DNA of 64,000 nucleotides from a virus. Every line of letters begins with the position of its first letter. The first letter of the stretch is position 1. The stretch is from the IMG/VR virus record IMGVR_UViG_3300025626_000006, positions 32,001 to 96,000 of that record. The stretch is one strand, 5' to 3'. Of the stretch, positions 31,877 to 43,796 are shown piece by piece. Under the pieces are notes generated by a model, which was given only the letters and a program-made list of their open reading frames with translations, had not been told where the DNA came from and ran no database searches. A program made the translations under genes and the position numbers.

Positions 31877-32043
31877 GTTTTTGTACCAAAATTGATTTTA
31901 TTAACTTTTAGTTTTGTACTTATATCTACACAACCTAAGTTGCTAAGCTTAATAACTTAGTAATTATCTAAGATAATCACAAGTATAAATATAGATTATT
32001 AAATTAATTAATAAATAATAACAAGCTTTCCCCATACTATGCC

Positions 32044-41060: not shown

Positions 41061-41411
41061 TTAGAGTTTACCTTCGTCTCGTAGATTTTGACGAATTTTA
41101 GTAGCTGATATCTCATGAATATCCGCTGGTGGAACGTGTTCTATTACATCATAACCAACCCCACGACCATAATTAACCGACTCGATGTCGGGTATGATTA
41201 TTACCTTTACTCTACCCTCTGCGATTGGGTCGAATAACTTTATCTGTAAGTTGTCGTATACCTCTTGTGGTGTATATGGTTGATTAGTATTTGGTTCAAC
41301 ATCACGAATAGCAATACAGACCCGCTTACCCTCATTGAGTCGTTGGTCTATTAACCATTGATGACCATCGTGCCATGGTTGCCATCTACCTATGAATAGC
41401 GAGTACTTCAT
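41061..41411 (-). CDS. Cytidylyltransferase-like (HxGH) nucleotidyltransferase
   Basis: FIGRWQPWHDGH ... ISATKIR. Confidence 0.8.
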   Translation of the reverse strand: MKYSLFIGRWQPWHDGHQWLIDQRLNEGKRVCIAIRDVEPNTNQPYTPQEVYDNLQIKLFDPIAEGRVKVIIIPDIESVNYGRGVGYDVIEHVPPADIHEISATKIRQNLRDEGKL

Positions 41412-41832
41412 TTAATGTATGTATTGGTAATTTATCATCGGTACATAACCATATATCATTAGCTCCAATCTCCATTGAGTCGGTATGATAATGCTCACGT
41501 CCTCTTATTTCGTTTGTAAACATATAGAATGACCTTGGACTTAAATCTATTAACTCATCCCTAACGTCTTTATACGGGCCTACTACTGATATGATTACAT
41601 GATAATCTTGAGTATATAGGAATCTAGCTATGGTAGTTACCTTACGCATATTATTCTTACGACCTACTTCACTATAATCGGTGTTCTGAAATACATCTCT
41701 CATGACATCACCATCTATATGTATAACCGGCTTAGTTACTTGACCATACTCAAGATGTTCTTTTAAAAGTTTTGCTATTGTTGTCTTGCCTGAACCCGGC
41801 TGACCATAAAACCAATATATCATATTAACCAA
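41386..41832 (-). CDS. cysC: Adenylylsulfate kinase-like protein
   Basis: IYWFYGQPGSGKTT, IDGDVMR, YSEVGRKNNMR, GPY. Confidence 0.75.
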   Translation of the reverse strand: MVNMIYWFYGQPGSGKTTIAKLLKEHLEYGQVTKPVIHIDGDVMRDVFQNTDYSEVGRKNNMRKVTTIARFLYTQDYHVIISVVGPYKDVRDELIDLSPRSFYMFTNEIRGREHYHTDSMEIGANDIWLCTDDKLPIHTLNEVLAIHR

Positions 41833-42095
41833 TCTTTAATACTAACTTTAACTTTGTTATTCTTTTGCATATCCCAAGAACGTTTCCATGTTCTGTTAAG
41901 CCATTCTCTATGATGGTCAAACAACTCATCACCCCTATCGGTATATGTTATTATACCCTTCATAACTGCAAATATACTTTCCTTATCTTCTTTAGTCAAC
42001 ATTGAATTGTCTACCAATTCATGTAAGATTAATATTATCTCACTTGTATGCTTCTTTTTCCAAAGAGATTCTATGTATTCAGTTTTGGTCTGCAA
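41820..42095 (-). CDS. Hypothetical protein
   Basis: Overlaps both neighbours in the operon. Confidence 0.5.
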   Translation of the reverse strand: MQTKTEYIESLWKKKHTSEIILILHELVDNSMLTKEDKESIFAVMKGIITYTDRGDELFDHHREWLNRTWKRSWDMQKNNKVKVSIKDWLI

Positions 42096-42714
42096 TGTAA
42101 TTCTTAAAATCGTTAATTGATATTAAACCCAAGTCTTCTTCTCTATTAGCGTCCATGATATTAAACTCATAGAATGGGTTATGATTTTGTACAAGAGGTG
42201 TATTTAACTTAAGATTATTTCTGATGATACCAATACCCCAATCAGTATCTACTGTTAACACATTCAAATCTGTACGATGTGTTCTTGCCCAATAAATAGC
42301 TTTCCAAGTTGTACCATTCCATGGTTCATATCTACCATTTACCATATAGTCCTCTCGCGCCATATGAATATCAGGTGGGTTACAATCGTGTAATATAATA
42401 TATCCGTTTGGATTTAAGTATCGAAGACTATTAACTATGTCTGTTTGTACTTGATATGATTTATGTAACCCATCAATAAATACTACATCATATTTTCTTG
42501 GGTCTTCTTGTACGTCTAAGAAATAAAAGAAATCATCAGAAGTCATCTTATAGTCAACTGGGTTGTCTTCAAACTCCACTCCAGGGTCGACACCATGTTT
42601 GGTGTCACATATAACTTTATCAAAACAAACTGATGGGTCACATACCCCAATCTCAAGATAGGTCTTGAAGTTGTGTTTATTTATTACATCATTTATTATA
42701 TCGTATCTTAACAT
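42079..42714 (-). CDS. Class I SAM-dependent methyltransferase (Methyltransf_24-like)
   Basis: YLEIGV, GVDP, MTSDDFF, DVVFIDGLH, GYIILHDC. Confidence 0.82.
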   Translation of the reverse strand: MLRYDIINDVINKHNFKTYLEIGVCDPSVCFDKVICDTKHGVDPGVEFEDNPVDYKMTSDDFFYFLDVQEDPRKYDVVFIDGLHKSYQVQTDIVNSLRYLNPNGYIILHDCNPPDIHMAREDYMVNGRYEPWNGTTWKAIYWARTHRTDLNVLTVDTDWGIGIIRNNLKLNTPLVQNHNPFYEFNIMDANREEDLGLISINDFKNYIADQN

Positions 42715-42727
42715 ATCTATAACTTAG

Positions 42728-42799
42728 TACTCCGTAGGAGAATCGAACTCCTATTTTATGGATGAAAACCATATGTCCTAACCGTTAGACGAACGGAGC
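42728..42799 (-). tRNA. tRNA-Glu(UUC)
   Basis: Cloverleaf GCTCCGT/ACGGAGT; anticodon loop TT-TTC-AT; TTCGA T-loop. Confidence 0.92.
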
Positions 42800-42821
42800 C
42801 GATTCACTTGACTGGCAGTTG

Positions 42822-42894
42822 AGCGGAAGGGTGGCTACTGCCCCACCATCTATGTACTGGATGTACATCGAGTTTCTCTAAACTCTTCTTCCGC
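42822..42894 (-). ncRNA. Non-canonical tRNA-Gly(UCC)-like RNA, copy 2
   Basis: GCGGAAG-AA-GAGTTT/AGAG/AAACTC-G-ATGTA/CATCCAG/TACAT-AGAT-GGTGG/GGCAGTAG/CCACC-CTTCCGC-T. Confidence 0.8.
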
Positions 42895-42899
42895 AGTTG

Positions 42900-42971
42900 A
42901 GCGAAGGGTTGGAACTGCCCCAACTTCTCCTATCTGGATGATAAGCGACTTTCTTTTAAGTCTTCCCTCGC
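42900..42971 (-). ncRNA. Non-canonical tRNA-Gly(UCC)-like RNA, copy 1
   Basis: GCGAGGG-AA-GACTT/AAAAGA/AAGTC-G-CTTAT/CATCCAG/ATAGG-AGAA-GTTGG/GGCAGTT/CCAAC-CCTTCGC-T; own promoter at 42983-43014. Confidence 0.8.
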
Positions 42972-43035
42972 AATTATGTTACACAATATACGAAATAAAT
43001 TCCATACTACCAAATGTTTTATGAATTAAATTTTG

Positions 43036-43109
43036 TGGAGAATATCGGAGTCGAACCGATGACCTCTTCGGTGCAAGCGAAGCGCTCTAGCCAGCTGAGC
43101 TAATTCCCC
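43036..43109 (-). tRNA. tRNA-Ala(UGC)
   Basis: GGGGAAT acceptor with G3:U70; loop CT-TGC-AC; TTCGA. Confidence 0.93.
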
Positions 43110-43208: not shown

Positions 43209-43487
43209 TTACCCTTTGAGTAACTCCTTTCCGTTTACATCTGACTCAATCGTTTCAACATCAGCACCATACTCCTTACCGAAGTTTGCCGCTAGTGTCT
43301 CTAACTTGTCAGTTGCGTTGGCTAGTAGCTCAACAAGATTATCAATTTCCTCAGTATGTTGTGGATGTTCACCTATTGCAACAGGTGATTCAAAGTAAAT
43401 AGACAAACGGGCTCTTGCGTCCATTATATCTGCGGTGTACTTAGCTTCTAATGCTTGATACAATCGTCTTGAAATTTTGTAGTTCAT
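43209..43487 (-). CDS. Hypothetical phage protein
   Basis: YFESPVAIGEHPQHTEEI motif; preceded by TATTTATA. Confidence 0.6.
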   Translation of the reverse strand: MNYKISRRLYQALEAKYTADIMDARARLSIYFESPVAIGEHPQHTEEIDNLVELLANATDKLETLAANFGKEYGADVETIESDVNGKELLKG

Positions 43488-43699: not shown

Positions 43700-43704
43700 A
43701 TAAA

Positions 43705-43795
43705 AAAGAGAGGTTTCGGGTCTTTCGGGGTTACTACGATATAGAGGTTAACCCTTACCTTTTTCTATACCATTGTAGCTTCACTACCTCTCTTT
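43705..43795 (-). ncRNA. Candidate structured ncRNA between tRNA-Leu and tRNA-Arg
   Basis: 10-bp closing stem AAAGAGAGGT/ACCTCTCTTT; inner stems; loop GGGTTA complementary to downstream TAACCC. Confidence 0.5.
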
Positions 43796-43796
43796 G

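Follow-up and report, generated by a model that had tools for sequence, protein, structure and literature searches.

Why would a phage keep, among ordinary tRNA genes, two RNAs that carry the marks of a glycine tRNA and lack those of translation? The question is raised by a 64,000-nucleotide (nt) stretch of viral DNA (positions 32,001 to 96,000 of IMG/VR record IMGVR_UViG_3300025626_000006, hereafter the window), in which two such RNAs, here called XGLY-1 and XGLY-2, lie inside a cluster of six ordinary tRNAs, with tRNA-Ala(UGC) and tRNA-Glu(UUC) on either side. XGLY is also our name for the RNA family of the two copies. We hold it probable, at roughly 70%, that both are dedicated glycine carriers for DNA modification of the Mom type, acting largely outside translation. 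An earlier reading of the same DNA, made from the sequence alone (the original prediction), had seen in the pair either a donor of glycine for a phage modification reaction, DNA being among the targets named, or a decoy. The donor half gained from the co-occurrence of XGLY with Mom genes and from the adjacency of the two, which point to such a function; the decoy half was left without support.

Structure and conservation of the XGLY RNAs

Both genes are on the minus strand and are laid out as first described, as tandem cloverleaves of 72-73 nt that lie 5 nt apart and are each followed by CAACT. XGLY-1, a type A member of 72 nt, occupies positions 42900-42971 (G1 at 42971, U73 at 42900). It consists of the acceptor stem GCGAGGG/CCTTCGC, A8, the D arm GACTT-AAAAGA-AAGTC, the anticodon loop CAUCCAG (A33, anticodon UCC), and a T arm with the stem GTTGG/CCAAC and the loop GGCAGTT, closed by U73. 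XGLY-2, a type B member of 73 nt at 42822-42894 (G1 at 42894, U73 at 42822), has the acceptor stem GCGGAAG/CTTCCGC, A8, the D arm GAGTT-TAGAGA-AACTC, the same CAUCCAG anticodon loop, the T stem GGTGG/CCACC with an 8-nt T loop, GGCAGTAG, and U73. The differences between the copies that had been listed for the D stem (GAC/GTC versus GAG/CTC), the anticodon stem (CTTAT/ATAGG versus ATGTA/TACAT) and the T stem (GTTGG/CCAAC versus GGTGG/CCACC) are exact. The trailer CAACT stands at 42817-42821 behind U73 of XGLY-2, and the identical 5 nt fill 42895-42899 between the copies; C74 is thus encoded, the remainder of CCA is not. CAA or CTA is also found directly 3' of the neighboring ordinary tRNA-Ala and tRNA-Glu.

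The minimum-energy fold of each RNA is the cloverleaf (z = -3.4 for XGLY-1 and -4.3 for XGLY-2), and none of 200 shuffled sequences was as good. A loop-to-T-loop pattern occurs twice in the window, against 0.09 occurrences expected by chance per window. Low or pseudo scores from tRNA finders had been anticipated; neither copy was called by ARAGORN, and neither matched the Rfam tRNA model (RF00005) at the gathering threshold or even at E <= 10. When scored against the family's own covariance model (R1), XGLY-1 reached 94.6 bits and XGLY-2 89.6 bits.

Upstream of the pair, where the original prediction had placed a promoter of the form TTTG-N20-TATATTGT, we found a promoter-like element at 42983-43014 (minus strand). 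It comprises a -33 TTTG (43014-43011), a 20-nt spacer and a -7-like TATATTGT (42990-42983), and is followed by 11 nt up to G1 of XGLY-1. The element fits the Bacteroidota promoter type (TTTG / TAnnTTTG). The same arrangement of TTTG and -7-like box, often with an exact TATATTTG box, is present 5' of XGLY-1 in about 15 homologous loci, and we regard it as a putative promoter of the pair.

Further members of the family were collected by three pattern scans of IMG/VR, each addressing a different part of the molecule, and by the covariance model R1. This yielded 99 copies with 55 distinct sequences on 55 IMG/VR viral contigs. A 23-base XGLY pattern had no match in 185,579 prokaryote species genomes, and a blastn search with XGLY found none among 50,697 GenBank phages. 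In 39 homologues the cloverleaf is paired in 99.7% of cells, compared with about 50% when the partners are slid by 1-3 columns, and changes on both sides that restore pairing were seen in 12 of the 22 pairs, including all five pairs of the anticodon stem. The cloverleaf is therefore, by this comparative measure, under selection, as had been supposed from the two window copies.

The loops are likewise conserved in these 39 sequences, reading UU-A(A/G)AGA-AA in the D region, C-N-W-C-C-A-G in the anticodon loop and G-G-C-R-G-N-N in the T loop. The GGCRG of the T loop is kept even in members retrieved with the pattern that leaves the T arm free, and all family members have U73 followed by C ("T-C") behind the acceptor stem. 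On most contigs there are two copies, one of each type: type A has the D stem GACUU and the T stem GUUGG, type B the D stem GAGUU and the T stem GGUGG. The copies are either 3-5 nt apart, as in the window, or parted by a structured spacer of 65-95 nt.

The determinants of tRNAGly for bacterial glycyl-tRNA synthetase (GlyRS) are G1-C72, C2-G71, U73, C35 and C36 (PMC7826273). Both window copies carry the identity set G1-C72, C2-G71, G3-C70, U73, C35 and C36, as the original prediction had pointed out, and it is invariant or nearly so in the family: G1, C2, C35, C36 and A37 do not vary, G3 is present in 37 of 39 members, and U73 in 54 of 54. The non-canonical features named at the outset (A8, A33 within the CAUCCAG loop, a GGCAG T loop and no D-loop GG) were also all confirmed in both copies. 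Of 54 family members, 52 have A8; at position 33, 31 have A, 21 have U, one has G and one has C, and at position 34, 42 have U and 12 have A. Fifty-three of them carry GGCAG or GGCGG in the T loop, and the D loop has a single G in place of GG. Where the canonical core reads U8, A14, G18-G19, T54-Psi55-C56 and A58, XGLY has A8, U14, A18-G19 and G54-G55-C56-R57-G58, keeping only G19 and C56.

This loss is not a drift of the whole lineage, since 117 distinct ordinary tRNAs of the same loci keep the canonical bases (U33 in 117/117, U8 in 116, TTC in 115 and GG in 115). The anticodon loop of XGLY is, as far as sequence can tell, free of decoding constraint. The changes in the core look coordinated (U8/A14 to A8/U14, G18/Psi55 to A18/G55, T54/A58 to G54/G58) while G19 and C56 stay, and so the elbow appears to have been rebuilt and not destroyed. 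The best explanation of the two RNAs is that they are phage-encoded descendants of tRNA-Gly that keep what bacterial GlyRS reads and have had their core rebuilt.

Two members depart from the family pattern by having 8-nt anticodon loops, CAUUCCAG and UAUUCCAA (L033:5445-5518 and L026:1-51, both on the plus strand). The L033 RNA also has a canonical TTCAAAT T loop and GGG in the D loop and scores 46.7 bits, above the Rfam tRNA threshold; it may be an intermediate between ordinary tRNA-Gly(UCC) and XGLY.

Co-occurrence and adjacency of XGLY and Mom

The Mom protein of phage Mu moves glycine from Gly-tRNAGly to adenine N6 in double-stranded DNA (Silva et al., Nat Commun 2026, PMC13219725; preprint 10.1101/2023.03.24.534169), and an on-base rearrangement then gives N6-carbamoylmethyl-adenine (PMC13219725). 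All E. coli tRNAGly isoacceptors serve Mu Mom, whose R111 and S124 are essential; the host tRNA pool is described there as scavenged, and phage-encoded tRNAs are not mentioned (PMC13219725). Mom belongs to the GNAT family (Pfam PF25680). The original prediction had proposed a search for transferases of the FemAB or GNAT type that co-occur with the RNAs. The GNAT half of this proposal was borne out by Mom and the FemAB half was not, FemAB (PF02388) being absent from the genomes G000, G001, G002, G003 and G005.

Two or three Mom genes are present in 13 of the 14 XGLY genomes that are at least 87% complete (G001, G002, G003, G005, G004, G008, G009, G012, G032, G037, G038, G043 and G048), and also in G011, which is 70% complete. 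The fourteenth, G013, has XGLY and no Mom and is rated 96% complete. Its sequence begins within a tRNA cluster of the G009 kind and, compared in gene order with the 271-kb G009, lacks the Mom-bearing part; because G013 looks truncated before that locus, we rejected it as a counter-example. The XGLY and Mom loci are about 55 kb apart in the large genomes, and fragments with only XGLY or only Mom end before the other locus.

Relatives without XGLY were found through a conserved protein of 533 amino acids (aa). Five of them, G019-G023, are near-complete (94-100%) and have neither XGLY nor Mom. In a tree of the 533-aa protein, the genomes with both XGLY and Mom make up one clade with 100/100 support, and the outgroup has neither. 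G019, which also has neither, is nested in this clade beside the phage of the window and G002. Most simply, two loci about 55 kb apart would have been gained together once and lost together once. Local synteny is kept in G019 (tRNA-Arg, c1, tRNA-Ala, ..., tRNA-Glu, methyltransferase, c0, kinase, nucleotidyltransferase), with other open reading frames (ORFs) at the XGLY position and no tRNA-Gly of any kind.

Two complete genomes separate XGLY from the ordinary tRNAs. G009 (271 kb) has 25 tRNAs in one cluster, a canonical tRNA-Gly(UCC) among them, and an XGLY pair 27 kb away; G004 (253 kb) has one XGLY, two Mom genes and no tRNA at all. With both kinds in G009, XGLY without tRNA in G004, and neither XGLY nor tRNA-Gly in G019, we conclude that XGLY is not simply the phage's GGA decoder. 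In the middle of its 25-tRNA cluster, G009 also has a tmRNA gene called by ARAGORN (L187:3747-4114, minus strand), whose tag peptide ends in ...GADYAVAA.

On two short contigs, L023 and L042, the RNA and the enzyme are immediate neighbors. A divergent XGLY begins 2 nt past the stop codon of the preceding gene, which encodes a Mom-family protein of 264 aa (PF25680, E 5e-42), and the two lie in a DNA-modification island of the order C5-methylase, Mom, XGLY, two PD-(D/E)XK nucleases and a second Mom. In the large genomes the Mom genes usually form a tandem pair encoding proteins of about 255 and 266 aa (E 1e-35 to 1e-50 against the Pfam model). These phage paralogues are 26-31% identical to Mu Mom. 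The tandem paralogues of G001, G002, G004 and G008 retain R111 and S124 (numbered as in Mu), for which K and T stand in the L023 Mom. Mom-like genes are found in only 269 of the 50,697 GenBank phages.

The tandem paralogues (in G001, G002, G003, G005 and G011; for example G002:C1:132958-137587) fall into two conserved subfamilies, one of about 255 aa with YGDPIGR and one of about 266 aa with YGYPVGR, and several large genomes have a third Mom gene of about 212 aa a few kb from the pair. The presence of several paralogues suggests several DNA specificities or several donors.

Another Mom gene, on contig L180, is followed at a distance of 70 nt by an odd tRNA-Gly(UCC)-like RNA (L180:3626-3699, plus strand), which lies just before a tRNA cluster. 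Its D arm is short, its 7-bp anticodon stem is topped by a UUCCA loop, its T loop reads UGCAACU, and CCA is encoded; the RNA is not called by ARAGORN and scores 31.6 bits to R1.

Proposed mechanism and competing explanations

If the XGLY RNAs are glycine carriers for Mom, the pair would be transcribed from its own promoter inside the tRNA cluster, and its transcripts would be excised and receive CCA in the same way as the flanking tRNAs, with which they share C(A/U)A trailers. Host GlyRS would charge them with glycine, and the phage Mom-family enzymes, as GNAT-fold DNA glycyltransferases, would take the glycine from Gly-XGLY in place of the ribosome. Once on adenine N6, glycine would rearrange to give N6-carbamoylmethyl-adenine, and the DNA would be guarded from restriction. 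By a rough estimate, an AT-rich genome of 170-270 kb modified at Mu-like density needs of the order of 10,000 glycyl transfers per copy, which would be the reason for a private glycine pool: a carrier that is, as we infer, poorly used by EF-Tu and the ribosome could supply very many transfers per burst without competing with translation.

A more specific version of this mechanism is possible but, on balance, doubtful. Here the rebuilt elbow (A8/U14, A18, G54-G55...G58) would act as a private identity code that phage Mom reads while ignoring host tRNAGly; EF-Tu, the ribosome and the host enzymes that modify or cleave tRNAs would ignore XGLY in turn, and types A and B would serve separate Mom paralogues that differ in DNA specificity. 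Were this true, XGLY would constitute a naturally orthogonal aminoacyl-tRNA channel devoted to DNA chemistry.

Affinity for EF-Tu was estimated from the Schrader-Uhlenbeck T-stem table (PMC3239215). The T stem of XGLY (G49-C65, U/G50-A/C64, U51-A63) gave -9.5 kcal/mol, equal to the value for the staphylococcal non-proteogenic tRNAGly, and the canonical tRNA-Gly(GCC) that often stands 3' of the second XGLY copy gave -10.7 kcal/mol. However, the canonical tRNA-Gly(UCC) of G009 also scores about -9.6 kcal/mol, and since the estimate does not discriminate between the two, the predicted weak binding of XGLY is suggestive at best.

That value is one of several points that weigh against dedicated glycine carriers. 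XGLY takes, in the majority of tRNA clusters, the slot that a tRNA-Gly(UCC) would be expected to fill, and a canonical CUUCCAG-type loop survives in 21 of 54 members, so some decoding may take place. Kinship among the genomes in which XGLY and Mom co-occur keeps the number of independent events small, at a single shared gain, a single shared loss, one adjacency and a second phage group. Mu Mom is thought by its authors to read mainly the acceptor end (PMC13219725), and since it accepts all host isoacceptors, a private tRNA is not obligatory. At 78 other Mom loci of IMG/VR (relatives of the L023 Mom) no XGLY was found within 4 kb, where two weak tRNA-Gly-like matches were the only hits, and Mom also occurs in Polaribacter phage P12002L, which has neither XGLY nor any tRNA. 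Lastly, no Mom gene (PF25680) is present in the 111.9 kb available for the phage of the window. This contig is estimated at 63% of the genome and is collinear with G002 (173 kb, 95% complete), in which the 533-aa protein lies at 93.4-94.9 kb on the same strand with 84% identity, compared with 89.1-90.7 kb here. As the three Mom genes of G002 are at 133-138 kb, a position past the end of the contig, we extrapolate that the Mom genes of this phage lie in the unsampled part of its genome.

The retained slot and loop could also mean that XGLY is a divergent but functional translational tRNA-Gly(UCC/ACC) for GGA and GGU, whose re-wired elbow and altered anticodon loop would still work on the ribosome and might have been favored for keeping host tRNA nucleases or modification enzymes at bay. 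The other members of the tRNA clusters in which XGLY sits mostly carry U34 anticodons, and, G009 excepted, no canonical tRNA-Gly(UCC) is found in these clusters or in the near-complete genomes examined. GGA and GGT account for 26% and 61% of the Gly codons in this phage, an L-shape is plausible because C56 and G19 are kept, and to the U33 of 21 members can be added the L033 RNA, which has a canonical T loop and passes the Rfam tRNA threshold, with an 8-nt anticodon loop. We nevertheless judge translation to be an unlikely role. Of 54 members, 33 have a base other than U (A, G or C) at position 33, as against U33 in every one of the 117 neighboring tRNAs; G009 has a canonical tRNA-Gly(UCC) besides its XGLY, G004 carries XGLY and no tRNA, and the close relative G019 does without tRNA-Gly altogether. 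Two paralogues are maintained, and the presence of XGLY follows Mom, not codon usage. Very unlikely, in our view, is a decoy or inhibitor that titrates or obstructs something in the host, for example an anticodon nuclease, a T-box leader, RelA or a GNAT toxin by which Gly-tRNAGly is acetylated. There are precedents both for phage tRNAs able to evade anticodon nucleases and for GNAT toxins directed at Gly-tRNAGly, the conserved non-canonical loops suggest a specific binding partner, and positions 33 and 34 vary in an otherwise conserved molecule, as escape from cleavage would predict. Yet the analysis turned up no toxin or defence system as a partner, the complete GlyRS identity set conserved here would be superfluous in a nuclease decoy, and neither the joint gain and loss with Mom nor the adjacency to it would be explained.

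Glycine could alternatively be passed to another acceptor (a protein, glycan, lipid or small molecule) by an unrecognized transferase, with candidates in the adjacent operon and Mom as a fellow traveller. In keeping with this, the pair lies just upstream of the methyltransferase/P-loop kinase/nucleotidyltransferase operon and the contig has no Mom gene. But no neighbor belongs to a family of aminoacyl-tRNA transferases or has their fold, five genomes lack FemAB, the operon including c0 is retained in the XGLY-less G019, and the downstream genes differ in type-I loci; we find this option scarcely probable. Least of all do we expect the RNAs to be uncharged punctuation, with RNase P and RNase Z cleavage sites that shape the neighboring mRNAs. 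The upstream gene c0 ends, in about 12 related loci, at a TAA inside the D loop of XGLY-1, as such a role might have it, but a processing signal needs no invariant C35, C36 and U73 and has no reason to co-vary with Mom, and the window pair has a promoter-like element of its own and no overlapping ORF.

As carriers for Mom, the XGLY RNAs can be compared with several known systems. Mu Mom is of the same enzyme family (PF25680) as the phage paralogues, and the same donor chemistry is expected. Mu, however, has no tRNA of its own and scavenges any host isoacceptor, whereas XGLY phages have two to three Mom paralogues and one or two tRNA-Gly-like genes with a rebuilt core. The nearest RNA counterparts are tRNAGly NP1-NP3 of Staphylococcus aureus and S. 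epidermidis, non-proteogenic donors for FmhB/FemA/FemB, a kind of tRNAGly reported as known only in staphylococci (PMC7826273). Both sets are extra tRNA-Gly(UCC) paralogues with the GlyRS determinants that have lost the D-loop GG and the T-loop TTC. Both have G55 (in a T loop with UGC/UGU in NP1-NP3 and GGC in XGLY), a T stem predicted at about -9.5 kcal/mol for EF-Tu, and a GNAT-fold aminoacyl-tRNA transferase as partner, Fem in one case and, presumably, Mom in the other. XGLY differs in its independent origin, in being phage-encoded, in its GGCRG T loop, A8, 5-6-bp D hairpin and variable position 33, and in its acceptor, which would be DNA via Mom instead of peptidoglycan via Fem.

For Dehalococcoides, a tRNA-Gly-like "pseudo-tRNA" embedded in the mom homologue of ssrA genomic islands has also been reported; no function was suggested for it (McMurdie et al. 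2011, PMC3146451). By its description it resembles XGLY as a conserved tRNA-Gly-like locus that is physically linked to mom and that annotation pipelines treat as a pseudo-tRNA; unlike XGLY, it belongs to a cellular island and lies within the mom ORF, and it was reported before the tRNA dependence of Mom was known. The canonical tRNA-Gly(UCC) of G009 shares with XGLY the GCG... acceptor stem, U73, UCC, the length and the place in tRNA clusters, but it has the U8, D-loop GG, U33 and TTCGA that XGLY lacks, and is called by both ARAGORN and Rfam, whereas XGLY stays below the Rfam threshold. In the literature consulted we found no description of a phage-encoded, re-wired tRNA-Gly linked to Mom.

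If confirmed, XGLY would join the staphylococcal cell-wall tRNAs as just the second example in nature of tRNA paralogues reserved for a job outside translation, the first in a virus and the first to serve DNA modification. Many large aquatic phages would then supply the glycine carrier themselves and not draw on host tRNA, and recognition of the tRNA by Mom enzymes may extend beyond the acceptor end. Because the genes escape ARAGORN and Rfam, censuses of phage tRNAs miss them. Their presence could flag phage genomes with hypermodified adenines, which would hence be restriction-resistant and hard to sequence or clone. The re-wired, covarying core is a natural experiment on how far the elbow of D and T loops can be replaced, and a possible orthogonal scaffold for tRNA engineering.

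Neighboring genes and accompanying RNAs

The ordinary tRNAs that flank the pair are on the same strand. tRNA-Ala(UGC) lies directly upstream at 43035-43109 (ARAGORN; Rfam 67.6 bits) and tRNA-Glu(UUC) directly downstream at 42727-42799 (ARAGORN; Rfam 62.2 bits). The pair is thus just upstream of tRNA-Glu and of the methyltransferase/kinase/nucleotidyltransferase operon (41061-42714), in agreement with the original prediction. We rejected this operon as a partner of the RNAs, having found no link between them; it is kept in G019. At 41061-41832 (minus strand) it contains overlapping genes for a P-loop kinase (APS-kinase-like, 148 aa) and a small cytidylyltransferase-like protein (116 aa), which match the two halves of PHROG 10255 and are found downstream of the tRNA cluster in about 16 loci and in G019.

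The gene c0 (41820-42095, minus strand) encodes a small conserved protein of about 90 aa. It is also present in L001-L010, L015, L020, L027, L033 and L037, and was found within about 1 kb of XGLY in 28 loci. W12, N30, G47, H61, H62, W70 and Q77 are invariant. No Pfam or PHROG family was assigned to c0, and its 186 homologues are all unnamed. The AlphaFold model is a five-helix bundle (pLDDT 91), for which fold searches were uninformative, the best Foldseek match having E 2.5 and VIA returning generic bundles with Z <= 6.2. In the roughly 12 loci where c0 runs into XGLY-1, its last five codons and TAA stop coincide with the 5' acceptor strand and D loop of the RNA; excision of XGLY-1 would take the TAA along, and the c0 mRNA would therefore be left without a stop. 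Because c0 is absent from G002-type loci and present in the XGLY-negative G019, it was rejected as an XGLY-specific partner.

A 92-aa protein encoded at 43209-43487 (minus strand) belongs to PHROG 1811 and has a weak PqqD-like match (E 0.0016). In 26 loci it is conserved between tRNA genes, just 5' of tRNA-Ser or tRNA-Ala.

In many relatives the gap 5' of XGLY-2 is filled by the conserved structured RNA of 65-95 nt mentioned above (L017:10082-10176, minus strand; L014:1239-1308, plus strand; L011:11653-11742, minus strand; and about 10 more), which matches no Rfam family. Its closing stem covaries, with compensatory changes in five of eight pairs, and the motifs UURAAG, AUAARRCCG and ACCGGNUAU are invariant; a CCG and a CGG within it are predicted to be able to form a long-range or pseudoknot pairing. 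The window itself has, between tRNA-Leu and tRNA-Arg, a 91-nt element (43700-43796, minus strand) of similar layout, possibly of the same kind; it too has a closing stem, together with GUGAAG and a loop whose sequence is complementary to a segment further downstream.

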